From positions 1 through 33,888 of the IMG/VR virus record IMGVR_UViG_2718218355_000003: 33,888 bases of DNA. One strand, given 5' to 3'. The translations under genes and the position numbers were made by a program. This stretch comes from a virus. Taxonomy: Duplodnaviria > Heunggongvirae > Uroviricota > Caudoviricetes. The notes under the pieces were generated by a model. The model was not told where the DNA came from and searched no databases. It saw only the letters and a program-made list of their open reading frames with translations. How positions within the stretch are numbered: position 1 is the stretch's first letter; each line of letters begins with the position of its first letter. Shown piece by piece: positions 593-26,256 of this stretch.

Positions 593-837
593 TGCTACCC
601 CTCCATTTAACGTGATGCTTCCGTTATTTTTAGTTGCACTATGCAGATTCTAGCTGACTGAATCTTTGATTAAAAGTTCTTCTATGCTCATAACTCGATC
701 TCGTAAGAATCTCAACTTGTATAAATTTATTAACATAAATATATACTAATAATTAAAATAGTTGCGTTTGCTGCCATAATATGCAGTTAGCCATTACAGA
801 AGATGAATATTTAACCATAGGTAAGATATAAACTGGA

Positions 838-900
838 TGGTATAAAATACCTAGGTGAGTAACTAATTATATTTAATTATTTTGGATATTAGTCACTCAC
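838..900 (-). terminator. hairpin terminator candidate downstream of the two-gene AT-rich cassette
   Basis: 14-bp inverted repeat GGTGAGTAACTAAT / ATTAGTCACTCACC (1 mismatch) around a 20-nt AT loop, directly after the stop of the 917..1321 gene; U-rich tract follows on the minus strand. Confidence 0.4.
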
Positions 901-916
901 CGTGGTATTAGGGAAA

Positions 917-1321
917 CTAAATACTCTCTTGGTTCTTTTTGATTGTTTTTAGAGTTTTCAGATAATGGTTTTTCCTGTCAAAACTTTGTTTTACTAATTC
1001 TTTATCGGTTGGTGATAAATTTTCTATGTCATCCAATGTAAACTCATCTTTTATTTTTTCTTGTAGCATTCTCTCAAGCTTTTTATATTTCCTGATGGCG
1101 ATTTTGTTGTAAAACCAATTAACCATAAGAGGAAGAAATAAAGATATAAATACAGTCGACTTACTATAGTTTTCTATTCCTATTATATCCTTCACCCGCT
1201 CAGAAAAAGGCAGGGTGAGTATAATGCTGGCAATAATTGAAGCCAGAAAACCGTATGCCAATCTACGGACATCGTGGTTAGCCTCCTGGATTGCGGGAAT
1301 TGTGTCATTAGTTTTTGACAT
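917..1321 (-). CDS. small inner-membrane protein, two predicted TM helices plus Lys/Glu-rich C-terminal tail (unknown function)
   Basis: 134-aa ORF, ATG start, strong RBS GGAGGAGAAGGGG. Hydrophobic segments LAYGFLASIIASIILTLPF and STVFISLFLPLMVNWFY, then a charged tail. AT-rich codon usage unlike the flanking phage genes. Overlaps the upstream gene by 14 nt. Confidence 0.6.
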   Translation of the reverse strand: MSKTNDTIPAIQEANHDVRRLAYGFLASIIASIILTLPFSERVKDIIGIENYSKSTVFISLFLPLMVNWFYNKIAIRKYKKLERMLQEKIKDEFTLDDIENLSPTDKELVKQSFDRKNHYLKTLKTIKKNQESI

Positions 1322-1868
1322 GCCCCTTCTCCTCCGCGTTTTGTTTATCTATCATCTTTATAGAACTTTCATCTATAAACATACTGGCTTCCAGGAGGGC
1401 AATTATCATGCTTCCCAAAATAGAGGACAGTCTAATTGATGCTTTTTTTGAATCATCATTTTTTCCATCGTATTTTGAATAACCAAAATAATCTTCGAAT
1501 AGAAGGCTTTCAATGTCATCAAAGAAGAAAAAGGATGTAGTTGTAACAATTATTGGTTTTTTGTCTATTATCTGAAACTTTACATTTGTTTTATTGAATT
1601 TAATTGATGTGTCATTAACTATCTTAACTAGCTCCATCATGTTATTTGCTACTGGGCGATTAACTATACTCATTGTGAGTGATGGAGAAAATCCTGAATC
1701 ATCAAAATTCAAATAATACTGAATTACAGGTGATTCATCTTTGTCTTCTTTATCTATGAAACTTTGTATTATTTTTTTATTTAAAGTCGAGCCATCACTT
1801 TCATTATATAATTCAATATTATCATCATGTCTAAGGGCTACACTATCGCGAATCAAATCAATTAACAT
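1308..1868 (-). CDS. acidic soluble hypothetical protein (186 aa), first gene of the AT-rich cassette
   Basis: Track ORF 1308..1874 begins with a TTG; first ATG is 2 codons in (MLIDLIRDS...), preceded by GAGG. AT-rich, Asp/Glu/Lys/Ile/Asn-rich; no motif I recognise. Co-oriented with and overlapping the membrane-protein gene. Confidence 0.55.
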   Translation of the reverse strand: MLIDLIRDSVALRHDDNIELYNESDGSTLNKKIIQSFIDKEDKDESPVIQYYLNFDDSGFSPSLTMSIVNRPVANNMMELVKIVNDTSIKFNKTNVKFQIIDKKPIIVTTTSFFFFDDIESLLFEDYFGYSKYDGKNDDSKKASIRLSSILGSMIIALLEASMFIDESSIKMIDKQNAEEKGHVKN

Positions 1869-1895
1869 TATCAAAAGACCTCAATTGTTATTTCA

Positions 1896-1935
1896 TGCGT
1901 AATTATACTAAAAGTATCTTAAAAACAGCAACATT
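1896..1935 (-). promoter_or_regulatory. candidate sigma70-type promoter of the AT-rich cassette
   Basis: On the minus strand TTGCTG-N18-TATAAT lies about 30-60 nt upstream of the 1868 start codon. Read by eye. Confidence 0.3.
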
Positions 1936-2092
1936 TTACATTGGTGATACCTATATGTTGATTGTCCCTCTGAAGAGGGGGGAGCTGCTTTTACAATAAT
2001 GAATGTAGGGCATTCTGGTGCAGAGCGGTCAGTCTGATAGGGTTGTGTCATAATCGTGTCAGTGCATGCCTGAACTAATACATCTAAGTTGC

Positions 2093-3193
2093 TCACTCTG
2101 TTTCTGCTATCCATTCCGGGATTTTTGCTTCAAGCTCAAGCTGTGTGGTAAAGCCACTGTTATCAATAGAATGCTCAACTTTTGCAATAATCCAGTCCTG
2201 ATTGTCGATGTCGCTTTTAAAGCCTGCCACCGTGCCATGCATTTCGGGGTAGAGTTCAGCGCGACCACGTGCCAGCGTGATGGAGAATGATGCGGCTCCG
2301 CGTTGTAGCTGTTGCCACTTTGCCGCCGCTGCGCGTCTTGCTGCCTGCTCGTTCTGATAAGTCTTGCGTAACACAAACACGTTGCCTTCCGCGCCTTCCA
2401 TATAGTCGCCTTCCCGGCTGCTGCTTTTCTCCTTTTTCGGTTTGCGGCGTTTCACGCTGACTTTTTTCTTTTTCCCGTAATTAAGATCAAGCCAGTAGGC
2501 GCGTACACCCGTATACGCCTCGCGGTCAGCAATGCGAAACTGATGGCGATCGCCGCTGCTGCGTGTGATGGCAAACGATGGCAATGGTTTTCCCTGCGCG
2601 TTCACGCCACCGCCTGGCATGATGAATAACAGATTACCGCTTTTTACCGTGGTGATTGCGCCCAGCATTTCCGCCATGCGCGTAAGAAAGGACATGTCGC
2701 TTTCTTCGGTCTGGTCGGCGTGGTCGATTTCGATATCCATCAGCATTTCGCTGATTTGCGGTTTCAGACCGTACCGATGAGCGATGGCGGATACCACACG
2801 CTCAACGGTCACATCATGCCAGGACACCTCACGTTTAACGTTAAATTCATCCCGAAAATCTGCGCTTCTGGCTGAAACAGTCAGCCTGTCCGGCGGTCCT
2901 TCGTGAGCGATTTCATCAACAATGTAAGTGCCTTTTTCTGTCAGCGGTTCTCCTTTCCAGCCAATGAGAACCGTCAGGCGCGCGCCCCGTGGCGGTAGCT
3001 GCAACTGACCATCCGCATCATCCAGCGTGATGGTGAGCTGGTCCGCCTCAAATCCCCGGTTGTCGGTCAGTGACAGGCTCATCAGGCGCTCTGCCACGCC
3101 TGACAGCGTTTTACCCTCCGCGAGAATATCAAAATCCGGCATTTTCACGGGGTCTGTGCCCTGACTGAGCAATTGCATGGTGGTGTCGGTCAT
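2093..3193 (-). CDS. D: tail protein D (late control gene D family)
   Basis: 366-aa ORF with P2 gpD-like size and composition. Start set at the ATG (MTDTTMQLL...) preceded by GGGAGGG; the track ORF extends upstream to 3325 without an RBS. Confidence 0.8.
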   Translation of the reverse strand: MTDTTMQLLSQGTDPVKMPDFDILAEGKTLSGVAERLMSLSLTDNRGFEADQLTITLDDADGQLQLPPRGARLTVLIGWKGEPLTEKGTYIVDEIAHEGPPDRLTVSARSADFRDEFNVKREVSWHDVTVERVVSAIAHRYGLKPQISEMLMDIEIDHADQTEESDMSFLTRMAEMLGAITTVKSGNLLFIMPGGGVNAQGKPLPSFAITRSSGDRHQFRIADREAYTGVRAYWLDLNYGKKKKVSVKRRKPKKEKSSSREGDYMEGAEGNVFVLRKTYQNEQAARRAAAAKWQQLQRGAASFSITLARGRAELYPEMHGTVAGFKSDIDNQDWIIAKVEHSIDNSGFTTQLELEAKIPEWIAETE

Positions 3194-3350
3194 CTGTTCC
3201 CTCCCTGTGCGGCATGGTCGCATGTGCGTGCGGAGGGGGTTACTGCTTTTTGTTGTCGCCGGGTCGGGAGAACGGCGCAGGGGTGAGATTACGCGCGTGG
3301 TGGGTGATGATTGTTGCCGAATCATTTAACGGATACAAGGGGCTGAAGCT
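3194..3350. promoter_or_regulatory. divergent intergenic region between D (minus) and FI (plus); presumed late promoters
   Basis: 157-bp gap between divergent starts. No canonical TGT-N12-ACA Ogr site could be confirmed by eye. Confidence 0.3.
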
Positions 3351-4535
3351 ATGAGTGAAACTCGTTTTCATGGTGCCCGTGTTACGGAAAATACCGACCT
3401 GGTAACAGCGATTAACGATGTTGATTCCAGCGTTATCGGTATCGTGGCAACGGCGGATGATGCGGACGCGAAGCTGTTCCCGCTGAACAAGCCCACACTG
3501 CTGACCCGCGTCAATGACGTGCTGGGAAAATGCGGGACAACGGGGACGCTTTATCGTGCACTTAAGGCCATCGCAGACCAGGTGAGCACAAAGGTGATCG
3601 TCGTTCGCGTGGCTGAACACAAAGAAGAAGACGGAAAGACGCAGGATCAACTGGTTATCGGTGGTTCTGAGGATGACGGCAGCTATACGGGGATGTATGC
3701 GCTGCTTGTTGCAGAGCAGGATGAAAGCATCGGATACCGTCCGCGTATTCTGGCCGCGCCGGAGCTGGACACGGAGGCTGTAACAAAATCCCTGTGCGTG
3801 ATTGCAGGTAAACTGCGCGCGTTTGTGTATGCCTCATGTTACGGCTGTAACACGATGGCTGAGGCGATTACCTACCGCCAGAAATTCAACGAACGTGAGG
3901 TGATGCTCTTATGGCCGGACTTCATCGCCTACAACCCGAAAAGTGGCAAAAACGAAACGTTCCCCGCGCCTGCCTATGCGTGCGGCCTTCGTGCGTACAT
4001 TGACCATGAGCAGGGCTGGCACAAATCATTGTCCAACGTTCCGGTTAAAAATGTGCTGGGGATGTCGAGGCATGTGTTCTGGTCGTTGCAGGCCGAAGAC
4101 AGCGATGCCAACAGCCTCAACAACAAAGAAATCACGACCATTATTCGTCGCAACGGGTTCCGCTTCTGGGGCAACCGCACACCGGAAACGAACGCCTACA
4201 TCTTTGAGGTGTATACCCGAACCGCACAGGTGCTGGCTGATTCAATTGCGGAAGCGCAGTTTGAAACCATCGACAGTCCACTGACGCCTGCGAATGTGAA
4301 GGATGTTATCAGTGCCATCAGGGCAAAACTGGATTCGCTGGTTACTGCCGGGAAACTGATTGGTGCGGAGTGCTGGTATGACGTGGTGGATAACGGCACC
4401 ACGAATTTACGTCAGGGGCGTGTGCGTATTCGCTACAAATATACGCCCGTTCCGCCACTGGAAGACATGGAGCTTTACCAGACGTTTACTGATGAATTCT
4501 TTGGTCCCGCATTTGCGGTGCTGGGAGGTGCCTGA
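3351..4535 (+). CDS. FI: contractile tail sheath protein FI
   Basis: 394 aa; contains GFRFWGNRT and the YTPVPPLE C-terminal motif matching P2 gpFI; ATG start. Confidence 0.9.
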   Translation: MSETRFHGARVTENTDLVTAINDVDSSVIGIVATADDADAKLFPLNKPTLLTRVNDVLGKCGTTGTLYRALKAIADQVSTKVIVVRVAEHKEEDGKTQDQLVIGGSEDDGSYTGMYALLVAEQDESIGYRPRILAAPELDTEAVTKSLCVIAGKLRAFVYASCYGCNTMAEAITYRQKFNEREVMLLWPDFIAYNPKSGKNETFPAPAYACGLRAYIDHEQGWHKSLSNVPVKNVLGMSRHVFWSLQAEDSDANSLNNKEITTIIRRNGFRFWGNRTPETNAYIFEVYTRTAQVLADSIAEAQFETIDSPLTPANVKDVISAIRAKLDSLVTAGKLIGAECWYDVVDNGTTNLRQGRVRIRYKYTPVPPLEDMELYQTFTDEFFGPAFAVLGGA

Positions 4536-5047
4536 TGGCTGTACCAAAACATCTTCGCTTTTTTACGTTGTTTGTGGATGGTGAAAACGAAGTGGGCAAA
4601 GTGACATCCGTCACGCCGCCCAAACTGACGCGCAAAACCGACAGCTATCGTGGTGGTGGCATGATGGGGGCGGTAAGTATTGATCTCGGTCTGGACGACT
4701 CCGCGCTTGATGCGAGTTTTGTCATGGGGGGAGCTGTTCGTGCGCTGTTCCTTAAATATGGCGGCACGATTGACGGCACGCTGCTGCGTTTTGCGGGTGA
4801 ATACTACACCGATGCAGAAAGCGATCTGTATGAAATCGAGATGCGCGGGCGTGTGACGGAAATTGATATGGGGGAAGCCAAACAGGGCGAAGCCACATCA
4901 CACACTTACGCTGTCAAAAACACCTACTACAAGCTGAGCGTTAACGATCGCCCGCTGTGGGAAATCGACCTGTTGAACCACATCTACCGGAAGGACGGCA
5001 AGGACATTGTGCCTGACCGTATCCGTTCCGCGCTTGGGCTTGGCTGA
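4535..5047 (+). CDS. FII: tail tube protein FII
   Basis: 170 aa, start ATG overlaps the FI stop (TGATG); size and position match P2 gpFII. Confidence 0.88.
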   Translation: MAVPKHLRFFTLFVDGENEVGKVTSVTPPKLTRKTDSYRGGGMMGAVSIDLGLDDSALDASFVMGGAVRALFLKYGGTIDGTLLRFAGEYYTDAESDLYEIEMRGRVTEIDMGEAKQGEATSHTYAVKNTYYKLSVNDRPLWEIDLLNHIYRKDGKDIVPDRIRSALGLG

Positions 5048-5102
5048 TAAGTAATATGCAGGCGGCGCAGTGCGTCGCCTCTGACTGAAAAGGAGACAAC
5101 TG

Positions 5103-5477
5103 ATGAAAGACATCGATACTGAAACCCGGAATAACACCGTGGCGGATGATGTGACGGCAGGTGAGGATATGGCTGTCGAACGTGGCGTAAAACTGACCCG
5201 ACCAATTGAGCGTGGTGGCGAAAAAATCACGTATGTGGAGATCACCGGGGCTATTGAGCAGGCTGGATCCCTGCGTGGTCTGTCGCTGTCTGATGTGCTG
5301 AATCTGAAAGCGGATACCATGTTTACGCTGTTGCCTCGCGTGACCTCGCCACGACTGGATGAAGTGATGATTAAAAAAATGTCGTCACGCGATTTTATTC
5401 AGTTGTGCGCTGTGGCTGTAAATTTTATGAGCGAGCCAGACTCTGGCGCGAAGAGCGTGCAGGAGACGGCAGCGTAA
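5103..5477 (+). CDS. E: tail assembly chaperone E
   Basis: 124-aa ORF with AAGGAG RBS, located between tube and tape-measure genes as in P2. Confidence 0.7.
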   Translation: MKDIDTETRNNTVADDVTAGEDMAVERGVKLTRPIERGGEKITYVEITGAIEQAGSLRGLSLSDVLNLKADTMFTLLPRVTSPRLDEVMIKKMSSRDFIQLCAVAVNFMSEPDSGAKSVQETAA

Positions 5478-5641
5478 TCACCCTGGTGTGCTTTGAGCAC
5501 ATCGAAGATCTGGTGGCGGATATTGCCGCCATTTTTAACTGGTCGCCCGCCGAAATCTTCATGATGACGCCCGGCGAAGTGGTTAGCTGGCGTGAGCGGG
5601 CGGCACTTCGTAGCGGGAATGCAGACAATGAAGACTCTTGA
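5103..5641 (+). CDS. tail assembly chaperone E+E' (predicted -1 programmed frameshift product)
   Basis: The -1 frame is open from about 5375 to 5641 and overlaps the 3' end of E; an A7 tract at about 5373-5379 lies where both frames are open. Mirrors the P2 E/E' and lambda G/GT arrangement. Confidence 0.5.
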
Positions 5642-8435
5642 TATCCGGGTCGCTTTCAGCGCCGTTGACAGGCTGACCCGGCCTGCCGAAAACGCCCGCC
5701 GCCTGATGGGGCAGTTTGGTGACTCCATCCAGCGAACGCAGGGGGCGATCAAAAATCTCGAGCGTCAGGCGCGATCATTTGAGCGCGCCCGTGACGCTGT
5801 CAGTAAAGCGGATGCGGGCATCGTGAAAGCACGACGCCAGCTTAACGCCCTTAATCAGTTACAACGCACGGGTACAGTGCTCAGCGAAAAACAACAAAAG
5901 CTGATGCAGCAGTTAAGCACCCGGCTTGAACGCCTGAATGAATCGCGCACACGGGAAATTCAGAAAATGCGGGAGCTTGGCGGAGAGCTGAAACGCCACG
6001 GCATTTCCCTGACAGGCAGCGATAACACCATCCAGCAGGCCATCAGACGCACCGAACAGTACAACAACCAGCTTGAACGCGAACGGCAGGCGCTTGCGCG
6101 TGTAACACGAGCGCGTGAGCGGTATTCGCGCGCGCAGGAAACAGCGGGAAAACTGAAAACAGGTGGTGCGCTGGCAATTGGTGCGGCAGCGGCGGGCGGC
6201 TATGCTGCCGGGCGTTTTTTGCAGCCTGCGATCGGGTTCGGCAAAGAGATGTCCCGCGTTCAGGCACTGACGCGAATCGACCAGAACAGCCCGCAGTTTA
6301 AGGCGCTGCGTGAGCAGGCGTTAAAACTTGGCTCTGAAACGCAGTTCACCGCAGGCGATGCCGCCAGTGGACAGGCATTTCTTGCAATGGCTGGCTTTAC
6401 ACCACAGGCCATTCAGGCTGCGCTCCCTGGCGTACTGAGCATGGCAACGGCTGGCGGTATGGACCTCGGTGAGACGGCGGATATTGGCTCAAATATTCTG
6501 ACGCAGTTCGGTCTTTCTGCTGACCAGATGGACCGGGTCGGCGACACACTCACCGCAGCGTTTACCCGTACCAACACTGACCTTCGCGCACTGGGTGAAA
6601 CCATGAAATATGCAGGTCCGGTGGCGGGTAAGCTGGGAATATCGCTGGAGCAGGCCGCAGCGATGGCGGGCGTACTGGCGAATATGGGTATCAGGGGGAG
6701 TGATGCTGGTACGGCAATGCGTGCCAGCCTGGCTCGTCTGGCATCACCGCCAAAGGCGGCAGCAGAGGCGCTGAAAGAGCTTGGCGTGTCTGTCTCGGAT
6801 GCCGGGGGCAAAATGCGCCCGATGGAGGATGTGCTGGCTGACCTTTATAAAGCTACCCGCAAATACGGGGAAGTTGACCGGGTATCGTTCTTTAAGGACA
6901 TTGCCGGAGAAGAGGCTTTCACATCATTTATGGCCCTCGTTGATGCGGCAGGTGACGGCTCCTTACCCAAACTGAGAAAAGAACTTGAAGGCGCGCGCGG
7001 TGAGGCTGAACGCACGGCAAAGGTTATGGCCAACAACCTTGACGGCGATCTGAAATCACTCAGCAGTGCATGGGAAGGGTTGCGCATCCGCATTGCAGAT
7101 CTGATTGACGGTCCGCTGCGTTCTGTCACGCAGTGGCTCACGCGTGTGGTATCAAAGGTGACGGCGCTGGCGCAGGCCCATCCCGCACTGACGCGCCAGC
7201 TACTGATTGCAGGCGGTGCACTGCTGGCAATGACTGCAACGGTTGGCTCGTTGTCGCTGGCTATTGGTGTGCTTGCTGGCCCGCTGGCAAAACTGCGTCT
7301 TGGTTTTTCCCTCCTGACCGGATCAATGAATGCTGTCAGGGTTCTGCCAGCACTATGGGGAATGGTGACGGGTTCCGTTTCTTTACTGGGAGGCGCTATC
7401 GGGGCGTTGTTCAGTCCGGTTGGTCTTATCGTGGCTGCGCTTGCCGGAGCTGCCGTTCTTATCTGGAAATACTGGGATCCCATCAGGGCATTTTTTGCCG
7501 GGGTGTTCAGCGGGATTATGGAAAGGCTGACCCCGTTGCGCGAAACCTTTGAACGGTTTGGTCCTGTTTTTGACGCAATCGGGAGTGGGATCAGCCAGGT
7601 GTTTAACTGGTTTAAATCGCTGCTGTCACCGATGGAGTCCAGCAAGGAAACTCTGGATAAATGTACCAGTGCTGGCGAGATATTCGGTAACGTTCTTGGC
7701 GGTGCGTTACAACTTGTTCTGACACCTGCAAAAATGTTGCTGGATACGCTGGCGTGGATACTTGAAAAGCTTGGTGTGCTTCCGGATGAAGCGGAAAGGG
7801 CGCGCAAGAAAATCGAAGACGCACAGCGTGCGGCCATTCTTCAGGACAAGGTTGCCTTGCTTCAGGGGGACCTGGCGAAAATCAATCCGCCGAAGCCTGT
7901 GGAAAATGGCAATGGCTCCGGAGGTGATAACCCCAAAGACAATAAACCGCTCACAGACAGCAATACCGGTACGCTGCGCAGACTCAGCAAAATTGCTGAT
8001 AACACAGGTAAGCTGGTTGAGGAGACGAAAAAACGCATTGGCCCCGGCGATATTGTCTTTAAAAACCTGCCCCGAGCACTTGCTGTTCGTGGGGAGTGGC
8101 AGGAGCGGAAGATTGCGCAGGTCAGTAAGCCTGCCCCCGCAATTAATATCACACCCGTGGTCCCGGCTCCGCTGCCTCCGGCGCTGGTCCCTGTTGTTGC
8201 GGCCAGCTCCCGCCCGGTGGCGGAGGCTATACGATCTCCAGTGGCATCAGTTCCTGTAACTTCCCGTAACCGGGAGCCTGTTGCCTCCGGATTTGGTGGT
8301 GAAATTCATGTTCATCTGCATAACGTTGTTACGCAGAATCCCCGCGAACTGGCGAAACTGGTCGGTGAAATGGTCAGGGCAGAAATGGAACGGCGCGCCC
8401 GTGCCGGGCGTGGCAGTTTTTACGATAAAGATTGA
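5619..8435 (+). CDS. T: tail tape measure protein T
   Basis: ~940-aa ORF with a long Ala/Gly-rich hydrophobic central region, after the E/E' chaperone pair. Track ORF begins at a GTG at 5592; first ATGs at 5619 and 5628, so the start is uncertain. Confidence 0.85.
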   Translation: MQTMKTLDIRVAFSAVDRLTRPAENARRLMGQFGDSIQRTQGAIKNLERQARSFERARDAVSKADAGIVKARRQLNALNQLQRTGTVLSEKQQKLMQQLSTRLERLNESRTREIQKMRELGGELKRHGISLTGSDNTIQQAIRRTEQYNNQLERERQALARVTRARERYSRAQETAGKLKTGGALAIGAAAAGGYAAGRFLQPAIGFGKEMSRVQALTRIDQNSPQFKALREQALKLGSETQFTAGDAASGQAFLAMAGFTPQAIQAALPGVLSMATAGGMDLGETADIGSNILTQFGLSADQMDRVGDTLTAAFTRTNTDLRALGETMKYAGPVAGKLGISLEQAAAMAGVLANMGIRGSDAGTAMRASLARLASPPKAAAEALKELGVSVSDAGGKMRPMEDVLADLYKATRKYGEVDRVSFFKDIAGEEAFTSFMALVDAAGDGSLPKLRKELEGARGEAERTAKVMANNLDGDLKSLSSAWEGLRIRIADLIDGPLRSVTQWLTRVVSKVTALAQAHPALTRQLLIAGGALLAMTATVGSLSLAIGVLAGPLAKLRLGFSLLTGSMNAVRVLPALWGMVTGSVSLLGGAIGALFSPVGLIVAALAGAAVLIWKYWDPIRAFFAGVFSGIMERLTPLRETFERFGPVFDAIGSGISQVFNWFKSLLSPMESSKETLDKCTSAGEIFGNVLGGALQLVLTPAKMLLDTLAWILEKLGVLPDEAERARKKIEDAQRAAILQDKVALLQGDLAKINPPKPVENGNGSGGDNPKDNKPLTDSNTGTLRRLSKIADNTGKLVEETKKRIGPGDIVFKNLPRALAVRGEWQERKIAQVSKPAPAINITPVVPAPLPPALVPVVAASSRPVAEAIRSPVASVPVTSRNREPVASGFGGEIHVHLHNVVTQNPRELAKLVGEMVRAEMERRARAGRGSFYDKD

Positions 8436-8447
8436 GGAGTCATGGCC

Positions 8448-8936
8448 ATGATGATGATCTACGGCATGTTTGTTTTTGAGCTGCGCACGCTGCCGCATCA
8501 GCAGTTACAGCAAAACAAAAGCTGGCGGCATGTGAAAAATGAACGCGTTAACCGTTCAGCAAGCTGGCAGTATATCGGTGCAGGTGATGATCGCATCGTT
8601 CTTTCTGGTGTGCTTTATCCTGAAATTACAGGTGGCGAAGTGTCGCTGTCGCTGCTGACCACGCAGGCGTATACAGGACGACCCTGGCCTTTGATTGATG
8701 GCGTCGGGCAGATTTACGGCATGTATGTCCTGACTGAAACGAATACGACCCGCTCCGAGTTTGATCGCTACGGTAAGGCGAAAAAGATAGAATTTTCACT
8801 GACTCTTGAACGCTGTGATGAGGATTTGCGGGAGCGCCTGCAATCCTCATCGTTCAGTGATATGCTGTCCGGCTTCAAAGATAAGGTGACATCATCTCTT
8901 AACAGCGCGGCCAGTTCAGTTAAAGGGCTGTTCTGA
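8448..8936 (+). CDS. U: tail protein U
   Basis: MMMIYGMFVFELRTLPHQQLQ...SWRH resembles P2 gpU (MMMVLGLFVF...). GAGGAG RBS; start taken at the second ATG. Confidence 0.85.
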   Translation: MMMIYGMFVFELRTLPHQQLQQNKSWRHVKNERVNRSASWQYIGAGDDRIVLSGVLYPEITGGEVSLSLLTTQAYTGRPWPLIDGVGQIYGMYVLTETNTTRSEFDRYGKAKKIEFSLTLERCDEDLRERLQSSSFSDMLSGFKDKVTSSLNSAASSVKGLF

Positions 8937-8944
8937 TTTAACAC

Positions 8945-8982
8945 AAAAAACCGCTAATGGTCAGATTAGCGGTTTTCATTTT
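8945..8982. terminator. bidirectional intrinsic terminator between convergent U and invertase genes
   Basis: A-run, 8-bp stem CCGCTAAT/ATTAGCGG with 6-nt loop, then T-run; overlaps the invertase stop codon. Confidence 0.5.
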
Positions 8983-9565
8983 CCTGAGTCTGCCCGGTTG
9001 TTTCTTCAGTCTGTATATCGCCTACAGGGTGATAACGATAAATCGTCGATGTGCCAATGCCGTAAATTATTGCCAGTTGTTTTCTGTCGTGCCCGTTTTT
9101 GATTAGCCTTGCTATTTGCTCATGCTGTTCTTTTGTCAGCTTCGGTCGACGTCCGCCTGTGCGCCCCCTTGCGCGCGCTGCCGCCAGCCCGGCCAGTGTA
9201 CGTTCAACAATTAATTCACGTTCCATTTCAGCCAGGGCACCCATCACGTGGAAGAAAAAACGCCCCATTGGAGAAGATGTGTCTATGCTGTCGGTCAGAC
9301 TGCGAAAATTAATCCCTCGCTCCCGTAGTTCCCCGACGAGAGAAATCAGATGTTTCATGCTTCGCCCGAGGCGATCCAGTTTCCAGACAACCAGCGTGTC
9401 ACCTTTTTGAAGGCGCTTTAAAGCGCGTTTTAATCCCGGTCGGTCTGTCTTTGTCCCGCTTAATTTATCTTCAAATATTTGTTCACATCCTGCACAAACA
9501 AGAGCGTTTCGTTGCAGGTCTGTATTCTGGTCATTTGTTGATACCCTTACATAGCCAATCAGCAC
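8966..9565 (-). CDS. serine DNA invertase (Hin/Gin/Cin/Pin family)
   Basis: LIGYVRVSTNDQNTDLQRNAL... N-terminal catalytic-serine motif and C-terminal HTH (GIGTSTIYRY). Likely GTG start at 9565; the track ORF starts at a TTG at 9583. Confidence 0.85.
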   Translation of the reverse strand: MLIGYVRVSTNDQNTDLQRNALVCAGCEQIFEDKLSGTKTDRPGLKRALKRLQKGDTLVVWKLDRLGRSMKHLISLVGELRERGINFRSLTDSIDTSSPMGRFFFHVMGALAEMERELIVERTLAGLAAARARGRTGGRRPKLTKEQHEQIARLIKNGHDRKQLAIIYGIGTSTIYRYHPVGDIQTEETTGQTQENENR

Positions 9566-9619
9566 ACTGAATCTCCCGTCCAAAAGCGCAAATCATGCCA
9601 TGCAGGCCAGAAACGGCCA

Positions 9620-9645
9620 TTATTTAAAACCTCGGTTTACGAGAA
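9620..9645. other. inversion crossover site (hix/gix-like 26-bp site), left
   Basis: TTATTTAAAACCTCGGTTTACGAGAA is an inverted copy (about 20/26 identical, shared 12-bp core ACCTCGGTTTAC) of the site inside gene H at 12298-12323, and resembles the remembered Mu gix site. Confidence 0.6.
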
Positions 9646-10341
9646 CTCGGCACAAGCGGGGAGAAAATACCGTTACTCAGTACAGCGAATACCTGGACCA
9701 ATCGACAAACATTCAGCGGTGGCCTTTCTGGGGAACTGTCCGGCAATGCCGCTACTGCAACAAAGCTGAAAACAGCACGAAAAATTGCTGGAGTTGGTTT
9801 TGATGGTTCTAGCGATATTTCAATTAGTGCCAAAAATGTCAATGCATTTGCACTCCGACAAACAGGTAATACTGTTAATGGTGATACATCCGTTGGATGG
9901 AATTGGGATAGTGGTGCATATAACGCCCTGATTGGTGGTGCATCTGCATTAATTCTTCACTTTAATATAAATGCTGGTAGCTGTCCTGCCGTACAATTCC
10001 GTGTGAATTATAAAAATGGTGGCATTTCCTACAGGTCGGCTCGTGATGGTTATGGGTTTGAATTAGGTTGGTCAGATTTCTATACCACGACACGAAAACC
10101 TTCAGCGGGAGATGTTGGTGCATATACGCGGGCAGAATGTAACTCAAGGTTTATTACAGGTATTCGCCTTGGCGGTCTGTCATCTGTTCAGACATGGAAT
10201 GGTCCCGGCTGGTCTGACAGGTCAGGTTATGTCGTTACGGGTTCAGTTAACGGAAACCGTGATGAATTAATTGATACAACACAGGCAAGGCCAATTCAGT
10301 ATTGCATTAATGGGACGTGGTATAACGCGGGGAGTATTTAA
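9631..10341 (+). CDS. alternative tail-fibre C-terminal cassette (start-less, silent in this orientation)
   Basis: Frame open from the crossover site with no start codon; begins NLGLRELG... (H has YLGLQET at the crossover) and ends ...RPIQYCINGTWYNAGSI, paralleling the H C-terminus ...RPIQKYINGTWYNVAQV. Confidence 0.7.
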   Translation, partial: LGLRELGTSGEKIPLLSTANTWTNRQTFSGGLSGELSGNAATATKLKTARKIAGVGFDGSSDISISAKNVNAFALRQTGNTVNGDTSVGWNWDSGAYNALIGGASALILHFNINAGSCPAVQFRVNYKNGGISYRSARDGYGFELGWSDFYTTTRKPSAGDVGAYTRAECNSRFITGIRLGGLSSVQTWNGPGWSDRSGYVVTGSVNGNRDELIDTTQARPIQYCINGTWYNAGSI

Positions 10342-10343
10342 CG

Positions 10344-10877
10344 ATGATGCACTTAAAAAACATTACTGCTGGCAACCCTAAAACAAAAGAGCAATACCAG
10401 CTAACAAAGCAATTTAACATCAAATGGCTTTATTCAGATGATGGAAAAAACTGGTATGAGGAACAAAAGAACTTTCAGCCTGATACGTTGAAAATGGTCT
10501 ATGACCACAACGACGTTATTATTTGTATTGAAAAGGATGTTTCAGCAATTAATCCAGAAGGCGCAAGCGTCGTTGAGGTTCCTGATATTACAGCAAATCG
10601 CCGGGCTGATATTTCGGGTAAATGGATGTTCAAAGATGGCGTAGTGATAAAGCGAACTTATACCGAGGAGGAACAGAGGCAGCAGGCAGAGAATGAAAAG
10701 CAAAGCCTGTTGCAACTTGTCAGGGATAAAACCCAGCTATGGGACTCACAGCTACGGCTGGGCATCATTTCCGACGAGAATAAACAAAAATTAACCGAGT
10801 GGATGCTCTACGCGCAGAAAGTCGAATCCACAGACACCTCCAGCCTGCCAGTAACATTTCCCGAACAACCTGAATGA
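10344..10877 (+). CDS. alternative tail-fibre assembly chaperone (Tfa, G-like)
   Basis: 177 aa; N-terminal ~110 aa nearly identical to the minus-strand Tfa at 10906..11433 ([22 protein letters not shown]...), C-terminus diverged. Confidence 0.8.
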   Translation: MMHLKNITAGNPKTKEQYQLTKQFNIKWLYSDDGKNWYEEQKNFQPDTLKMVYDHNDVIICIEKDVSAINPEGASVVEVPDITANRRADISGKWMFKDGVVIKRTYTEEEQRQQAENEKQSLLQLVRDKTQLWDSQLRLGIISDENKQKLTEWMLYAQKVESTDTSSLPVTFPEQPE

Positions 10878-10880
10878 GAC

Positions 10881-10910
10881 AAGGCCCTCTATCGGGCCTT
10901 AATTTTTATT
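10881..10910. terminator. hairpin between the two convergent tail-fibre assembly genes
   Basis: AGGCCC-TCTATC-GGGCCT stem-loop followed by TAATTTTTATT. Confidence 0.4.
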
Positions 10911-11433
10911 CAGGCTTTTGTGGCCATTCAGGATTTGCCGTATCCACACGGTTGACCAGAACACTGTAACGTTCCCATGCTTCCAGTCGTGTGCGTTCCT
11001 CGTCTGTTGCCATATTCAGCCTGACAGCGCGTTCCAGCGGCTGGATGACTGATTCAGCTTCGGAAAGCAATGCGGTCTTTTGTGATTCTGCCTGTTGTTG
11101 CTGCTCATCTGTCGTATAAATCCGTTTAACCACAGTTCCGTCCTTAAACATCCACTTCCCTGAATCATCGGCACGACGATTGGCTGTTATATCTGGAATC
11201 TCAACGACACTAAAGCCTTCGGGATTAAGCGTTGAGGCATCTCTGGTGATAGCGACAATAATATTATTTTCATCGTAAACAATCTTTATTGTGTCTGGCT
11301 GAAAGTTCTTCACTTCCTCATACCAGTTTTTTCCGTCTTCGGACCATAACCAGATAACATCAAAATTCTTTGTTAGCTGATATTGCTCTTTTGTTTTTGG
11401 ATTACCTGACTTAATGTTCTTTAAATGCTGCAT
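10906..11433 (-). CDS. G: tail-fibre assembly chaperone G (expressed orientation)
   Basis: 175 aa directly downstream of H on the same strand; Tfa-family N-terminal region. Confidence 0.85.
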
Positions 11434-11436
11434 AAC

Positions 11437-13587
11437 TTACACCTGCGCAACGTTATACCATGTGCCATTGATGTATTTTTGTATCGGCCTGAAGATGGCT
11501 TCATCATCGCCATCTACTTCACCAATGATTCTTAATCCGGTAATCGTGTGTCCGGCTTTTTCATAACGACCACCTCGCGCCATCAATTGAACAACTCGCG
11601 TACCCAGGCGAACATCTTTCACATAGCGGGAATCAAAATTTCCCCAGTTGCTGGGTTGCATCTGACCGTTAACAGCAAATATTACCGAGTTATCTGTATT
11701 TCGCTGGCTATAGAAATGCCATCCGGCCTCATCGCCTAACTCTGCAACCACTGGACGGGTGGAAGCACCCCATAAATTAAAGGTAATATTCTTCGTGGAT
11801 GTATTAGAGCTGGATAGCGAGAACTTTTTACTATCACCTGCCTGAATATTTTTAAAAGCAATAGCAACTCCATTCTGAAAGCGGAATACTCGCTGACTAT
11901 TAGCGTAAACATCCAGAATACCATCACCATTCTGTTTGAATCCGGTGTCATTATCACCAAGAACAATAGAGCTACCACCTAACGCATTCGTCGTACCAAC
12001 TCCAAGACTGCCATTAATGACGGCATTTACCAGAATATTTAGTGCATCCCATTTCAGCGTCATCAGGTCTTTTGTTGTGGTGCTCTGGCGGCTTCTCCAT
12101 TTGAAATATTCATTGCCGTTGTCGCCTGTTTCAAACCACATGTATGAATCAGTGTCACCATCAGCATCATTTTTAAATCCAATCTTCGCCCAGTCAGTAT
12201 TTCGAATCCAGGCAAGGATTGAGTCATTTTCAAAAGTAAGCCCACCGGACAAGGTATCGCCATTTTTTTGCACGGCGTTACCAGCCCTGTTTACCGTTTC
12301 CTGTAAACCGAGGTATTCGATAACGGCGGCAACGGTCGATTTCGCAAGAATATCCCGCCCGATTTTTGTCAGAGTTGCCAGGCTGGCGACATCATTCCCC
12401 GTAAAATACGGAAACCTGTCTGCCGCAGTAGCAAGCCCGGCCAGCGCCGTCAGGGTGGCATCTTTCGGTTGCTTACCCGCAAGCGCGTTAGTCATGGTGG
12501 TCGCAAAATTCGGGTCGTTGCCCAGCGCCGCAGCCAGCTCGTTCAGCGTGTTCAGTGCATCAGGTGACGAATCTACAAGGGCGGCAATTGCAGCCATAAC
12601 GAAAGCCGTGCTTGCGATTTGGGTATTATTCGTTCCCTGTCGCGCAGTTGGTGTTGTTGGCGTTCCGGTCAGCGCCGGGCTGTTTAATGGGGCTTTCTTA
12701 TTTGTTTCATCCATTACCGCCTTAACCGCTTTCGATGTCGCGGCCAGTGTTTCAGACGTGCTGTTGGTGGCACTACTGAGCTGGACAATCCCTTTTTGTG
12801 CTGTCGTGGCGTCCTGAGCGGTATATTTTGCGTTAGCAAGATCATACGCGGCCTTTACTGCTTTCGGCGTTGCAGCCTGCGTTTCAGACGTGCTGTTGGT
12901 GGCGCTACTGAGCTGGACAAGGCCTTTTCGCGTCGTGCTGGCATCCTGCGCAGTATATTTACCGTTAGCAAGATCATACGCGGCCTTAACCGCTTTCGGC
13001 GTTGCAGCCTGCGTTTCAGACACGCTGTTAGTGGCGCTACTGAGTTGAACAAAGCCTTTTGCGGTCAGCGAGGCGTCCGGGTGACGTCGTGACTGTTCAT
13101 GCTCTTTCAGTTTGTCATCCACGTAATCCACTGTGGCCATCACCATGGTGTTATTCACGGTAAGCGCCACGGTGGCCGTGCTGGATACGGTCAGAATGGT
13201 GCGAAATGTTTGTGCGCGTCCGGACCCTTCGGCAACGATTGGCTTGTAACTTTCGGCAGTATTGCCCACCGCGATCAAATCGCCGTGCTCATCAAACACA
13301 CCAATTTCCCGGATCCAGAATCCGCCCGTTTCAGGAGGAATAAGCAGCTCCGCAATAATGCGGTTCTGATGTGTTGCGTCCAGGATGACGCGATTAACAG
13401 TATGTCGCCACACCTCATGCACCAGACGGGTCTGCTTACTGTCTGGTGTGGGCAACGTGCCGCCACCGTCGCCCACGGCCATATGAGTCAGGCGAACAGG
13501 CTTACCATCTGGCGCGGCTGCCTGAGCTAATTTTTTGGCACCTGTATCGGTGATAACGGTTTTAAATTTTCGTGTTGTGGTACTCAT
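11437..13587 (-). CDS. H: tail fibre protein H (constant N-terminal part plus invertible C-terminal part)
   Basis: 716 aa in the P2 gpH position; internal tandem ~41-aa repeats; C-terminal third lies inside the invertible segment. Confidence 0.85.
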   Translation of the reverse strand: MSTTTRKFKTVITDTGAKKLAQAAAPDGKPVRLTHMAVGDGGGTLPTPDSKQTRLVHEVWRHTVNRVILDATHQNRIIAELLIPPETGGFWIREIGVFDEHGDLIAVGNTAESYKPIVAEGSGRAQTFRTILTVSSTATVALTVNNTMVMATVDYVDDKLKEHEQSRRHPDASLTAKGFVQLSSATNSVSETQAATPKAVKAAYDLANGKYTAQDASTTRKGLVQLSSATNSTSETQAATPKAVKAAYDLANAKYTAQDATTAQKGIVQLSSATNSTSETLAATSKAVKAVMDETNKKAPLNSPALTGTPTTPTARQGTNNTQIASTAFVMAAIAALVDSSPDALNTLNELAAALGNDPNFATTMTNALAGKQPKDATLTALAGLATAADRFPYFTGNDVASLATLTKIGRDILAKSTVAAVIEYLGLQETVNRAGNAVQKNGDTLSGGLTFENDSILAWIRNTDWAKIGFKNDADGDTDSYMWFETGDNGNEYFKWRSRQSTTTKDLMTLKWDALNILVNAVINGSLGVGTTNALGGSSIVLGDNDTGFKQNGDGILDVYANSQRVFRFQNGVAIAFKNIQAGDSKKFSLSSSNTSTKNITFNLWGASTRPVVAELGDEAGWHFYSQRNTDNSVIFAVNGQMQPSNWGNFDSRYVKDVRLGTRVVQLMARGGRYEKAGHTITGLRIIGEVDGDDEAIFRPIQKYINGTWYNVAQV
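12298..12323. other. inversion crossover site (hix/gix-like 26-bp site), right, inside H
   Basis: TTCCTGTAAACCGAGGTATTCGATAA closely resembles the remembered Mu gix site; encodes the conserved LGL tripeptide at about H residue 426. Confidence 0.6.
12700..13071 (-). repeat. three tandem ~123-bp coding repeats within H
   Basis: Protein repeats ...QLSSATNS(V/T)SETQAATPKAVKAAYDLAN(G/A)KYTAQDA... three times; the DNA repeats are nearly identical. Confidence 0.8.
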
Positions 13588-13589
13588 GC

Positions 13590-14120
13590 TTAATCGTCCG
13601 GATAAATGGTAATAACTTCACCGTCATAAGTTGCCGCCGCTGCGAAAATATCCCCCGGAATTTCCTGAATGATATTCAGCCCTGTCATGTGGCGGCTGAC
13701 CGGACGGGCATCAGCAATCAACCGCTCCATTTCCAGATACATTTCCTCCGTCACGCCACTGTCCAGTGTGCCCACTTCAACGGTAAATGTTCCCGGTTCT
13801 CCGCCGAACTCCCACCACTCAGACACGCGAATGAGGTATCCCAGCGGTTCAATGGCCCTGCGCAGTGCGCTGATGGTCCCTTTGTGTCGGTGTATCAGCC
13901 ATGCATCACGAATCACCTGTCGTTTTGTCTCTTCCGGCCAGTTGCGATCCCAGCGGTCAACGGAAAACGCCCAGGCGAGATAAGGCAGCAGATGCACCGG
14001 GCAGGTATCCGGCGACCACAGCGTGTTGAGGTCTACCGGGATGTCTGTAATGCGCGTTCCGACAGCTTCGGCACAACGCATGAAACTGCTGGCTGATGGT
14101 GGTAACAGTGAATTACTCAT
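13590..14120 (-). CDS. I: baseplate protein I
   Basis: MSNSLLP...LWSPDTCPVHLLPYLAWAFSVDRWD matches P2 gpI; start set at this ATG, overlapping the J stop. Confidence 0.85.
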   Translation of the reverse strand: MSNSLLPPSASSFMRCAEAVGTRITDIPVDLNTLWSPDTCPVHLLPYLAWAFSVDRWDRNWPEETKRQVIRDAWLIHRHKGTISALRRAIEPLGYLIRVSEWWEFGGEPGTFTVEVGTLDSGVTEEMYLEMERLIADARPVSRHMTGLNIIQEIPGDIFAAAATYDGEVITIYPDD

Positions 14121-15009
14121 TGCGCCCACCTTCGCTGATGGTGAACGACTCACAGCGCGCCGCCTGTATGTCGCTGATGGCCATATTCTGTGTGGGTTCG
14201 ATTATCTCCACGCGTTGCACACCGTGCACATGCAGTGCGGCAGCAATGGCGGACAACGCCACGTCCTGACCGATAAGCCCCTGCTCAGCCAGCCACTTCC
14301 TGAACGACGATTCCGCCGCAGCCAGAATAGGTTCGGATTCCGGGCCGGGGTAAAAGTACAGTTTTGCATTCAGCCGCCATGTCACGATTCTGGCGCTCTG
14401 TACGGTCAGGCGGTCGGCCACCGGGCGGGTGTCCTCTGCATTCAGAACGGCGCGAACGGTATTAAGCAACGCCTCCGTTGCTGTGCCGTCGCCTTCAGTG
14501 GACAGAATGGAAACCGTCACATTTGCCGGAGACGGACTGATAGCCCGCGCATCACGCACCAGACCGCTGGCGCTGCGTGCAAAATACTCGTATGCACCTG
14601 ACGGGCCAGCAACACTCAGGCCGTCGTACGCCCGCTGCGCCCGCAGTCTCAGCGAGGTGTCGCTCTCCATCACCGCGTCGGTGGTATCCGTTGCCGGAGT
14701 GATAACCAGGCGTTTTGTGTTCATATTGCCCGCGAGGTTGTCCAGGTCTGTCCCGGCGCTGTGGCTTAACATGCAGGCGCGTGCCCCCTCGTTAACCCGC
14801 TGGCGTAACAGCATTTCACGAAACGACATGGTTTGAGCGATAACGTTAAGGGGTTCCGATTCCAGCTCCAGCGCGGCGGAAACGGCTTCACGCTGTTCGG
14901 CGGGATAAGCCGCAATCATCATGGCCTTTGTGTCAGCCAGAATTGCCTCAAAGTCAGGCTCCGCGATGATGGCGGGGTCCGGTAACTGTGAAAGGTCAAC
15001 GGCGGGCAT
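14113..15009 (-). CDS. J: baseplate wedge protein J
   Basis: MPAVDLSQLPDP... resembles P2 gpJ (MPIIDLNQLP...); 298 aa. Confidence 0.88.
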   Translation of the reverse strand: MPAVDLSQLPDPAIIAEPDFEAILADTKAMMIAAYPAEQREAVSAALELESEPLNVIAQTMSFREMLLRQRVNEGARACMLSHSAGTDLDNLAGNMNTKRLVITPATDTTDAVMESDTSLRLRAQRAYDGLSVAGPSGAYEYFARSASGLVRDARAISPSPANVTVSILSTEGDGTATEALLNTVRAVLNAEDTRPVADRLTVQSARIVTWRLNAKLYFYPGPESEPILAAAESSFRKWLAEQGLIGQDVALSAIAAALHVHGVQRVEIIEPTQNMAISDIQAARCESFTISEGGRNE

Positions 15010-15012
15010 GAT

Positions 15013-15363
15013 TTACTCCCTCAGCGTGATGGTTAATTCAACATTCTGCATGGTCTGCATGACAGTGCCCGACAGCGTCACCCCGGCGCGGCCTCCCGCT
15101 TTCCAGACAACGTCGATGGCATCCAGGGCAATGCGGGGTTCCCATCGTGTCAGCGCAATCACGGCAGCACTCATGCATTGCAGACGCGTGGTGTTATTCA
15201 TGGGTTCGTCAATCAAATCAGGCACAAGGCTGCCATATTCCCGTCGCATAACCCGGCTTGCCAGTGGGGTGGTCAGGATGTCCCTGACTGACTGTTTCAG
15301 GTGCTCCATATCGTTCAGGTTTCCCGTTCCGTCTGGGTTCATTCCTGTGTAGCGGGTTGTCAC
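15013..15363 (-). CDS. W: baseplate protein W (gp25-like)
   Basis: (V/M)TTRYTGMN...SRVMRREYGSL matches P2 gpW. GTG start overlapping the V stop (GTGA). Confidence 0.85.
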   Translation of the reverse strand: MTTRYTGMNPDGTGNLNDMEHLKQSVRDILTTPLASRVMRREYGSLVPDLIDEPMNNTTRLQCMSAAVIALTRWEPRIALDAIDVVWKAGGRAGVTLSGTVMQTMQNVELTITLRE

Positions 15364-15941
15364 TGCGGGCCTCCTGTCGAATCGCTGCCACCTTTCACGC
15401 CACCGTGTTTATGTGTATGCACGGTAATGCCGTTTGAGGTGAAATCGCCGCCGCTGTGCGTGATATTGCCGCTCATCTTTCCCCCTTTTGTGACGTCAAG
15501 CGTCGCCGTTCTCAGAAGGTTTGTGCATTCCACGACGGGCGTGTCCAGTGTCACGCTGACGGATGCCTGTAAAGTGGCCGTTTTCATGCCGCTGGCGCTC
15601 AGTGCGCCTGCGTCCGCGTCGTAGCGGAACACCGCGCCGTCCGGCGCGCTGATCACGATTTCTTTCAGGCTTTTGCCGGGGGCCGGACTGGCATCACTCC
15701 ACAGGCTGCCAATTATCATGGCGGTTTCCGGGTTGCCGCCAATGCAGGCAATTACCACCTGTTCGCCTGGTGATGGCGGCAGCCACACATTGAAGGCTCC
15801 CGCGCGCGTGGTGTTCCAGCGCAACCAGCCTGTCTCCAGTTCGCCGCTGCGAACGCGCACGCGCCAGGACTTCTCATCAACTTCAGAGATGATCCCGGTG
15901 CGGATGATATTGCTCAGCAGTCGCATGAGTTCTGCGCTCAC
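15360..15941 (-). CDS. V: baseplate spike/assembly protein V
   Basis: IRTGIISEVD...VHTHKHGGV motifs as in P2 gpV. Start GTG at 15941 (coupled to the S stop) or ATG at 15926. Confidence 0.85.
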   Translation of the reverse strand: MSAELMRLLSNIIRTGIISEVDEKSWRVRVRSGELETGWLRWNTTRAGAFNVWLPPSPGEQVVIACIGGNPETAMIIGSLWSDASPAPGKSLKEIVISAPDGAVFRYDADAGALSASGMKTATLQASVSVTLDTPVVECTNLLRTATLDVTKGGKMSGNITHSGGDFTSNGITVHTHKHGGVKGGSDSTGGPQ

Positions 15942-16582
15942 CGTACAGCCTCCGCAATCCGGCCCAGCACCGTGTTATAAATCAGGCGTTCATCTGCCTG
16001 ACTGATGCCCAACAGCTCACGTACCGGGTAATCGGTGAAAATGCCCGGCGCAACCTGATCGCGCTCACCGAACTGATGAACGCGTGCAATACGTGCAGCC
16101 ACGCCGCTGTAACCCACCGTCACCCCGGAAGTATCCGCACGGGCTTTCAGGTAGCGGGCGGTGCGCAGTTTTACGAACATGGGGACGCGCTTTGTGCTGT
16201 CCTGGTTGATGCGCCGGGTGCGTATTTCCAGAAAGCGGTCGATGTCATCCCGGTAAAACGTGCGGATATTGTTTTTATCCTCATCCCACCCGGTGATGGT
16301 TCGCCCGTATTTCCCCGTGTCGTGATGCCAGTTTTTCAGCGTGCGTGCTTCGTTATTCCAGATAAAGCGAATGCGTTCCTGTATCCGGGTTACGCGGCGT
16401 CTGCGTGGTGTCCATGCGGTCCCGTCCGGCGCTTTCTGTGACCGGATACGTGCCTGCTGGGCGCGACGTAAATCCTGTGCCAGCTTTCTGGCGATGTTAT
16501 TGATGGCCTGCTGATTCAGGCTGTCGCGGATGGCCTCAAAGGTTTCATCCACGCGGGTGAATGCCTTATCCATCGCTTTCAC
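15938..16582 (-). CDS. S: tail completion / virion morphogenesis protein S
   Basis: Position between R and V; PDGTAW motif similar to P2 gpS, but at 214 aa it is longer than P2 S. Start ambiguous (GTG 16582 or ATG 16573). Confidence 0.7.
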   Translation of the reverse strand: MKAMDKAFTRVDETFEAIRDSLNQQAINNIARKLAQDLRRAQQARIRSQKAPDGTAWTPRRRRVTRIQERIRFIWNNEARTLKNWHHDTGKYGRTITGWDEDKNNIRTFYRDDIDRFLEIRTRRINQDSTKRVPMFVKLRTARYLKARADTSGVTVGYSGVAARIARVHQFGERDQVAPGIFTDYPVRELLGISQADERLIYNTVLGRIAEAVR

Positions 16583-26252: not shown

Positions 26253-26256
26253 TGGT

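Follow-up and report, generated by a model that had tools for sequence, protein, structure and literature searches.

A Gin-type inversion switch at the tail-fibre locus of a P88-like Escherichia coli prophage

The viral sequence IMGVR_UViG_2718218355_000003 (positions 1 to 33,888 of the IMG/VR record, referred to below as the window) carries a tail-fibre locus beside a serine invertase gene. We conclude with high confidence that this locus is a two-state, Gin-type site-specific inversion switch that swaps the tip of the tail fibre in a P88-like prophage of Escherichia coli. The locus has gix-type crossover sites and an intact Gin-type invertase, fuses the fibre gene in frame in both states, and has been inverted recently and repeatedly, exactly at the central dinucleotide of the sites. 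Judged by sequence similarity, the window belongs to the genus Xuanwuvirus of the family Peduoviridae (the P2 family). Its fibre region is 97 per cent identical to phage P88_4B11 and Citrobacter phage phiSM, the remaining 20 kb is 97 per cent identical to phage P88 over 88 per cent of its length, and an integrase gene lies at the end of the window. About half of the switch region also matches the gin gene and G segment of phage Mu, at 90-91 per cent nucleotide identity.

The original prediction placed two inverted 26-bp sites with a common core at 9620-9645 and 12298-12323, and these positions hold to the base. The left site, L (9620-9645, + strand), is gix-like and reads TTATTTAAAACC-TC-GGTTTACGAGAA, with its central dinucleotide at 9632-9633. 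The right site, R (12323-12298, - strand), lies inside the coding sequence of the fibre gene H, where it encodes ...I-E-Y-L-G-L-Q-E on the - strand; it reads TTATCGAATACC-TC-GGTTTACAGGAA, with its central dinucleotide at 12310-12311. The two sites are identical at 21 of 26 positions and have in common a 12-nt core, ACCTCGGTTTAC. A repeat finder reports the same pair as an inverted repeat with 30-nt arms (9616-9645 and 12298-12327; 80 per cent complementary). Aligned to Mu gix, the check first suggested for them, L has four mismatches and R has two. The annotated boundaries of the Mu G segment lie in TTATCCAAAACCTCGGTTTACAGGAA, the central 14 bp of which are the same in both window sites, in keeping with the G-segment design that had been proposed. 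Sites for these enzymes are defined as 26 bp, made up of two 12-bp half-sites of imperfect symmetry around a 2-bp core (McLean et al., PMC3798978), and the window has the arrangement used by enhancer-dependent invertases, two such sites in inverted orientation with the same core, TC. From one cut site to the other the segment measures 2,680 bp, and with both sites counted in, 2,704 bp, which refines the first estimate of about 2.7 kb.

Allowing up to three mismatches, a degenerate gix pattern matched exactly two places in the 33.9-kb window, L and R, and none in 100 dinucleotide-preserving shuffles. No third site, such as a multi-state shufflon would have, was found with three or fewer mismatches to this pattern anywhere in the window, nor with seven or fewer mismatches to Mu gix within 8000-14000.

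As it stands in the window, H occupies 11437-13587 (-), encodes 716 amino acids, and is 84 per cent identical to P2 H. Its constant N-terminal part (12312-13587, -; 425 amino acids; Pfam Phage_tail_fib and Phage_fiber_2) contains the start codon and lies outside the segment, where the V-W-J-I-H late operon ends; it aligns collinearly with the prophages of strains UTI89 and NU14, which represent both orientations. The variable C-terminus currently joined to it (11437-12311, -; ~291 amino acids) is a tip of the P2 H type, and after it comes a chaperone gene (10906-11433, -; 175 amino acids; Caudo_TAP) whose product is 94 per cent identical to Mu U and 93 per cent identical to P2 G. The opposite strand of the segment holds a silent alternative C-terminus (9628-10341, +; 237 codons, no start codon, gp37_C domain) and a chaperone of its own (10344-10877, +; 177 amino acids; Pfam Caudo_TAP; 98 per cent identical to Mu U' by blastp). 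Over its C-terminal 165 amino acids the silent tip is 88 per cent identical to Mu Sv', and the two tips can be aligned to each other over just 117 amino acids, at 32 per cent identity. Between the convergent chaperone genes is a GC-rich, terminator-like hairpin (10881-10900, +) with its T-run on the + strand. The open reading frame map and the domain matches thus agree with the claim that an expressed H C-terminus with its Tfa protein faces a start-less alternative with its own. This is the layout of the Mu G and P1 C cassettes, with a constant, start-bearing N-terminus outside, two opposite-strand C-termini inside and a chaperone after each, and it is the same as that of the annotated Mu record. 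RefSeq describes the silent arm as an N-terminally incomplete tail protein, and annotation pipelines name it a pseudogene or a hypothetical protein.

The crossover was predicted to fall in an LGL tripeptide and to give an in-frame fusion on inversion, and it does so in silico. Across site R, H reads ...GAA TAC CTC GGT TTA CAG... (E-Y-L-G-L-Q) on the - strand; the silent arm, on the + strand, has an in-frame TAA, then AAC CTC GGT TTA..., and is open from there to 10341. The crossover dinucleotide TC forms bases 2-3 of the first Leu codon of LGL, and the flip therefore yields an in-frame H of 661 amino acids, as obtained by replacing 9632-12311 with its reverse complement. Both forms are found as annotated proteins in other genomes: the 716-amino-acid form is an intact coding sequence in NU14 and 33E, and the 661-amino-acid form in UTI89 and 33F4. 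From the anatomy of the locus, translation would be confined to whichever arm is joined to the constant part of H and to the chaperone gene downstream of that arm, and transcription would enter only from outside the segment. A sigma-70 scan of 8800-13800 returned four weak sites (7.7 were expected from shuffles) and no strong match upstream of the silent arm.

The constant part of H also contains a tandem repeat of three 132-nt units (12719-13114; 44 amino acids each, matching the Pfam Phage_fiber_2 repeats), the later copies being 83 and 61 per cent identical to the first. Relatives can be shorter by exactly one unit: H is 2019 nt long in phiSM (2151 nt in the window), and several E. coli matches span 5076 nt, not 5208 nt. 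The length of the fibre shaft therefore varies with repeat copy number.

The gene next to site L encodes a serine DNA invertase, as had been proposed (8966-9565, -; 199 amino acids from a GTG at 9565). The mechanically called reading frame runs further, to a TTG at 9583 (8966-9583, -), and the GTG at 9565 is the likely true start because relatives in RefSeq are annotated from the same start and Gin begins there too. A catalytic domain (Pfam Resolvase, E 1.5e-50) is followed by a C-terminal helix-turn-helix (HTH_7, 4.4e-13). The protein is 80 per cent identical to Mu Gin, from which residues 1-119 differ at one position only (K39R), and it matches the Gin chains 4m6f and 3uj3 in the PDB at E 1e-100. 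The catalytic Ser9 is conserved; the nucleophilic role of this residue is established for Gin (PMC3575834). With a resolvase-type catalytic domain, Ser9 and a C-terminal helix-turn-helix, and a length within the ~190-200 amino acids usual for the family, the enzyme falls in the Gin/Hin/Cin/Pin subclass. Two further sets of residues, the basic residues of helix B (Hin K47/R48/K51) and the triad that contacts Fis (Hin Q151/R154/L155), are reported to be unique to Fis/enhancer-dependent invertases (McLean et al., PMC3798978). The window invertase has both, as K46/R47/K50 and Q150/R153/L154 (numbering one below Hin), and they are invariant with Gin. The DNA-binding domain (residues ~120-199), which we aligned to the solved Hin domain 1hcr, has diverged, and matches Gin and Hin alike at only about 50 per cent identity. 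The recognition helix in this domain, GIGTSTIYRY, is nearer to that of Hin (GIGVSTLYRY) than to that of Gin (DVALSTLYKK), and the nucleotide match to Mu ends at ~9177, inside the gene. The invertase thus looks chimeric, with a catalytic domain ~99 per cent identical to that of Gin and a diverged DNA-binding domain.

The first (5') 265 nt of the invertase gene are about 98 per cent identical to Mu gin at the nucleotide level. Within this 5' end lies a candidate sis-like recombinational enhancer (9470-9533, -) with two Fis-like 15-mers, GACCAGAATACAGAC and GAACAAATATTTGAA. The 15-mers are 48 bp apart, their centres (near 9525 and 9477) are ~108 and ~156 bp from the centre of site L, and the pair sits in sequence that is 100 per cent identical to Mu gin. 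In this family the enhancer is ~65 bp long, has a Fis site at each end, and is natively ~100 bp from one recombination site (PMC3798978). The position and size of the candidate, which was picked out by its identity to Mu gin and a heuristic motif, fit this description and are consistent with such an enhancer. On the other side of the invertase gene, a hairpin with a 12-bp stem (8947-8976, no strand assigned) lies between the convergent gpU and invertase genes and is likely a bidirectional terminator.

Both orientations of the segment are common among complete E. coli genomes. The full 5.2-kb region is present in 283 of them, 138 in the window orientation and 145 flipped. Searching with the left junction alone, the flipped form (gpU, the invertase gene and 400 nt of the other arm) was found in 104 complete E. 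coli genomes at up to 99.9 per cent identity, and the junction as it stands in the window was found in 264. UTI89 is collinear with the flipped window over 11.6 kb. Aligned to the window as given, UTI89 splits into three pieces with breakpoints inside both sites, and its own sites are exactly the predicted hybrids of half-sites; in flipped relatives, the inner half-site of L is swapped with that of R. Its annotated fibre coding sequence is the same length as our in-silico flipped form.

Recent inversion is also evident in two clonal pairs, UTI89/NU14 and 33F4/33E, the latter being farm isolates. In these pairs the flanks (21,189 + 21,339 bp; 42.5 kb) are 100 per cent identical, and the sole difference is the 2,680-bp segment, whose sequence in either partner, when reverse-complemented, is exactly that of the other; the half-sites are exchanged in the way predicted. 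The 26-bp sites of the window are base for base those of NU14 and 33E, the partners that have the same orientation as the window. Equal bit scores in the two match lists suggest further clonal pairs among O145:H28, O111 and other strains.

This inversion has also been seen in culture. In sequenced UTI89 cultures, Russell et al. (2019, mSphere, PMC6458436) found an inversion located at 0.9 Mb, beside an invertase homologous to Gin, and validated it by polymerase chain reaction (PCR); it was also present in control cells. Their three validation primers map to the window with 0, 0 and 1 mismatches, at 7309-7328 (in the tape-measure gene), 10744-10763 (inside the segment) and 14116-14135 (in the I/J genes), and the inner primer matches one strand in UTI89 and the other strand in NU14. 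Detection of both orientations had been named as a check on the switch, and the public genomes, the clonal pairs and the published PCR together document a reversible inversion, of which the adjacent enzyme is presumably the catalyst.

By analogy with the biochemistry of the family (PMC3575834, PMC3798978), inversion would begin with invertase dimers binding both 26-bp gix-like sites and would probably be assisted by host Fis, bound to the candidate enhancer in the first part of the invertase gene, on which the site-bound dimers would synapse. Ser9 would then make double-strand breaks at both sites, staggered at the 2-bp core (central TC/GA), after which one pair of subunits with its half-sites would turn 180 degrees and the ends would be religated, leaving the 2,680-bp segment inverted. 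The promoter, the start codon and the first 425 codons of H would stay outside the segment, so that each orientation would join the constant part of H in frame to one tip and put the matching chaperone gene directly downstream. In the state of the window, the 716-amino-acid P2-H-like fibre and the U-type chaperone would be expressed; in the flipped state, these would be replaced by the 661-amino-acid fibre with its Mu-S'-like tip and the U'-type chaperone. A population of lysogens would then release phage with two receptor specificities. We infer that the two states differ in receptor specificity and host range, because the silent arm is 88-98 per cent identical to Mu Sv'/U' and the expressed arm is 84-93 per cent identical to P2 H/G.

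Several points weigh against this interpretation. The data on flipping come from relatives of the prophage and not from reads of the window's source strain. A change of host range is argued by homology to Mu S/S' and U/U' and to P2 H, and, set beside Mu, the silent tip diverges over its N-terminal 70 amino acids and the expressed tip over most of its length. As for the enhancer, a crude scan for Fis motifs also picks up many other weak candidates. Lastly, the gpD gene is truncated to 801 nt in UTI89 and NU14 (both 13643-14443) and in AH21B060 (3942-4742), where it is annotated as VgrG/Pvc8 family; it is 1110 nt long in 33F4 and 33E, and a 1233-nt open reading frame in the window (2093-3325). 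With a truncated gpD, the UTI89-type prophage may be defective, and phage host range would be moot there; the fibre segment of this prophage still flips in culture.

We weighed three other explanations. In one, which we think quite improbable, the main benefit of the flip in lysogens goes to the bacterium, either because fibre proteins block the receptors of other phages or because the killing spectrum of a tailocin is switched. There is a precedent in PinQ and StfE2 (PMC12529663): inversion of the P segment of e14 by PinQ produces alternative fibre proteins that are reported to block receptors used by other phages. The prophage is also widespread in E. coli, and the probably defective copies with truncated gpD keep an intact, flipping switch. 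Against this, H lies in the late operon and should be silent in a repressed prophage, the sequence gives no sign of expression in lysogens, and P88 and phiSM, to which the prophage is most closely related, are active phages that can be induced (PMC6456863). As this explanation concerns who benefits and not the mechanism, it is compatible with a Gin-type switch of the fibre tip.

A second alternative, that the switch is real in relatives and frozen in the window because the invertase or the sites are inactive, so that only the 716-amino-acid fibre is made, seems to us highly improbable. Frozen derivatives do exist, as P2 keeps only a relic site and one arm, and the population evidence on flipping stems from strains other than the window's own. 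The window's invertase, however, is 100 per cent identical in protein sequence to that of UTI89, in which flipping was shown by PCR; its sites are those of NU14 and 33E, the partners of flipped clones; and in the silent arm both the 237-codon frame and the chaperone gene are intact. We give almost no credence to the third alternative, in which RecA-dependent homologous recombination between the short inverted repeats, and not the adjacent invertase, makes the inversions: sequence alone cannot name the enzyme, and the hybrid half-sites place the crossover merely within the common 12-nt core, but perfect identity is limited to that core (21/26 overall), which is far under the ~25 bp that is the rough minimum for efficient RecA recombination and makes this route unlikely; a longer inverted repeat between the two chaperone genes (347 nt, 71 per cent identical, from the repeat finder) shows no sign of breakpoint use; the breakpoints fall on a site matching Mu gix, with an intact Gin homologue next to it; and the near 1:1 ratio of orientations and the repeated flips within clones imply the high rate typical of invertases.

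The surroundings of the switch differ from those in P2. In the window, the block encoding the sheath, tube, E, tape measure and U (3351-8936, +) converges on the V-W-J-I-H-G block (-; within 11437-16582), with gpD at 2093-3325 on the - strand, and the invertase gene is located exactly where the + and - tail blocks converge. This gene order is unlike that of P2, in which the sheath-to-U block points the other way with respect to H, and is the same in P88, the UTI89 prophage and AH21B060, making it a trait of the genus. A ParM gene (StbA_N/ParM_N) and Plasmid_stab_B form a partition module (25941-27216, -) beside the replication endonuclease gene; the module sits in an integrating P2-family prophage and is kept in P88, phiSM and the UTI89 prophage. 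An Rfam scan of the whole window at the gathering threshold gave no matches.

At the left end (1-1874) are three open reading frames without a Pfam match, all on the - strand (8-322, 917-1321 and 1308-1874), which are variable cargo. P88-like phages leave this part uncovered and cover just 57 per cent of positions 1-3400, and ~175 records of Shiga toxin-converting and other phages match part of this stretch at 80-90 per cent identity. The left end of AH21B060 instead has com/mom-like genes, a TM2-domain gene and hok. AH21B060 is not the source of the window: it is 99.9 per cent identical to the window across 8442-13650 and 97.9 per cent identical, with eighteen gaps, across the tape-measure region; it differs from the window in its truncated gpD and left-end cargo. 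Some E. coli genomes have had the switch knocked out or disrupted in nature by IS5, IS3-family or ISVsa5 elements inserted in its invertase and fibre region.

Invertible tail-fibre segments of the Gin/Hin/Cin/Pin type (Mu G, P1 C, e14 P) have featured in textbooks since the 1980s. Fibre inversions driven by Gin/Hin homologues in P2-like prophages of E. coli flip in culture (PMC4272514), systematic surveys of programmed inversion include phage tail fibres in their lists of known targets (PMC9881135), and this very locus had already been seen flipping in UTI89. The mechanism is thus already known, and the window adds little by way of discovery. Its meaning is more practical. The records of P88, P88_4B11 and phiSM annotate a 'DNA invertase'. 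The words invertase and inversion are absent from the study of host range and the P88 tail fibre (PMC5285337), and the paper on the Citrobacter rodentium prophage (PMC6456863) names just a 'predicted DNA invertase' and leaves inversion undescribed. Segment orientation may therefore be an uncontrolled variable in the P88 study, and host-range work on P88-like phages should control for it. Annotation pipelines label the two fibre forms as different proteins, and two assemblies of one clone can therefore disagree over the direction of a 2.7-kb segment for biological reasons and not through error. The near 1:1 split over 283 genomes, together with the clonal pairs, is also a handy natural dataset for estimating flipping rates.

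We also considered a broader role, which we regard as unlikely. The gix-like site in H genes, even that of P2, could be a portable junction on which a resident Gin-type invertase acts in trans across co-resident Mu-, e14- and P2-like prophages, swapping or capturing cassettes of fibre tip and chaperone between unrelated phages, with the flip also open to exploitation by the host in defective copies (receptor masking, tailocin spectrum). If so, exchange in trans would leave the kind of chimeric cassette seen here, with a Mu G(-) arm, a P2 H/G arm, the catalytic domain of Gin and a more Hin-like recognition helix.

Among known systems, the Mu G segment (Gin, gix, S/S', U/U') has the same layout, which runs from invertase and site through silent tip, chaperone, chaperone and expressed tip to the second site and the constant part. 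The phages themselves differ, the window being a P2-family Xuanwuvirus and Mu a transposable phage. The constant part is a 425-amino-acid P2-type H in the window and the 169-amino-acid Sc in Mu, and the segment is 2.68 kb long compared with ~3.06 kb in the Mu record. The expressed tip of the window is P2-H-like and 46 per cent identical to Mu Sv; the silent tip is 83 amino acids shorter than its Mu Sv' counterpart, with a different first 70 amino acids. There are no com/mom genes beside the window invertase.

The P segment of e14 and the P2-like prophages of enteropathogenic E. coli (EPEC) E2348/69 (Goldberg et al. 2014, PMC4272514) also combine an invertase of the same serine class with alternative fibre C-termini, and in these Pin-type systems both orientations coexist in cultures grown from single colonies (PMC4272514). 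Their sites are of a different sequence (AAACCTTGGTTTGGGAGAA type) and their segments are 1.6-2.0 kb long, and one EPEC locus is a three-site, four-state shufflon, whereas the window has two sites. The possibility that one of the invertible loci of E2348/69 is the locus described here was rejected on account of these pin-type repeats and 1.6-2.0-kb segments.

P2 (NC_001895) was said by the original prediction to lack the switch, and this is right as far as the invertase, the second site and the alternative arm are concerned; Z/fun follows G. P2 H nevertheless keeps a relic of site R, a gix-like TTATCGAATATCTCGGTTTACAGGAA at the same EYLGLQE position (-, from locus position 2893), one base from site R of the window and three bases from Mu gix. 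P2 looks like either a frozen, one-orientation derivative or the donor of the cassette.

Also close are the 0.9-Mb locus of UTI89 and its counterparts in P88, P88_4B11 and phiSM, which have the same prophage type, gene order and invertase protein as the window and are about 97-98 per cent identical to it, though not identical. P88 (2215-5311) has the same two-site switch, in which the segment is longer, ~3.07 kb, and the left site differs from Mu gix at one base. UTI89, NU14, P88_4B11 and phiSM have the same 26-bp half-sites as the window, and UTI89 was deposited in the flipped state relative to it; the study that found this locus inverting left the tail-fibre fusion unanalysed and named the gene pin (PMC6458436).

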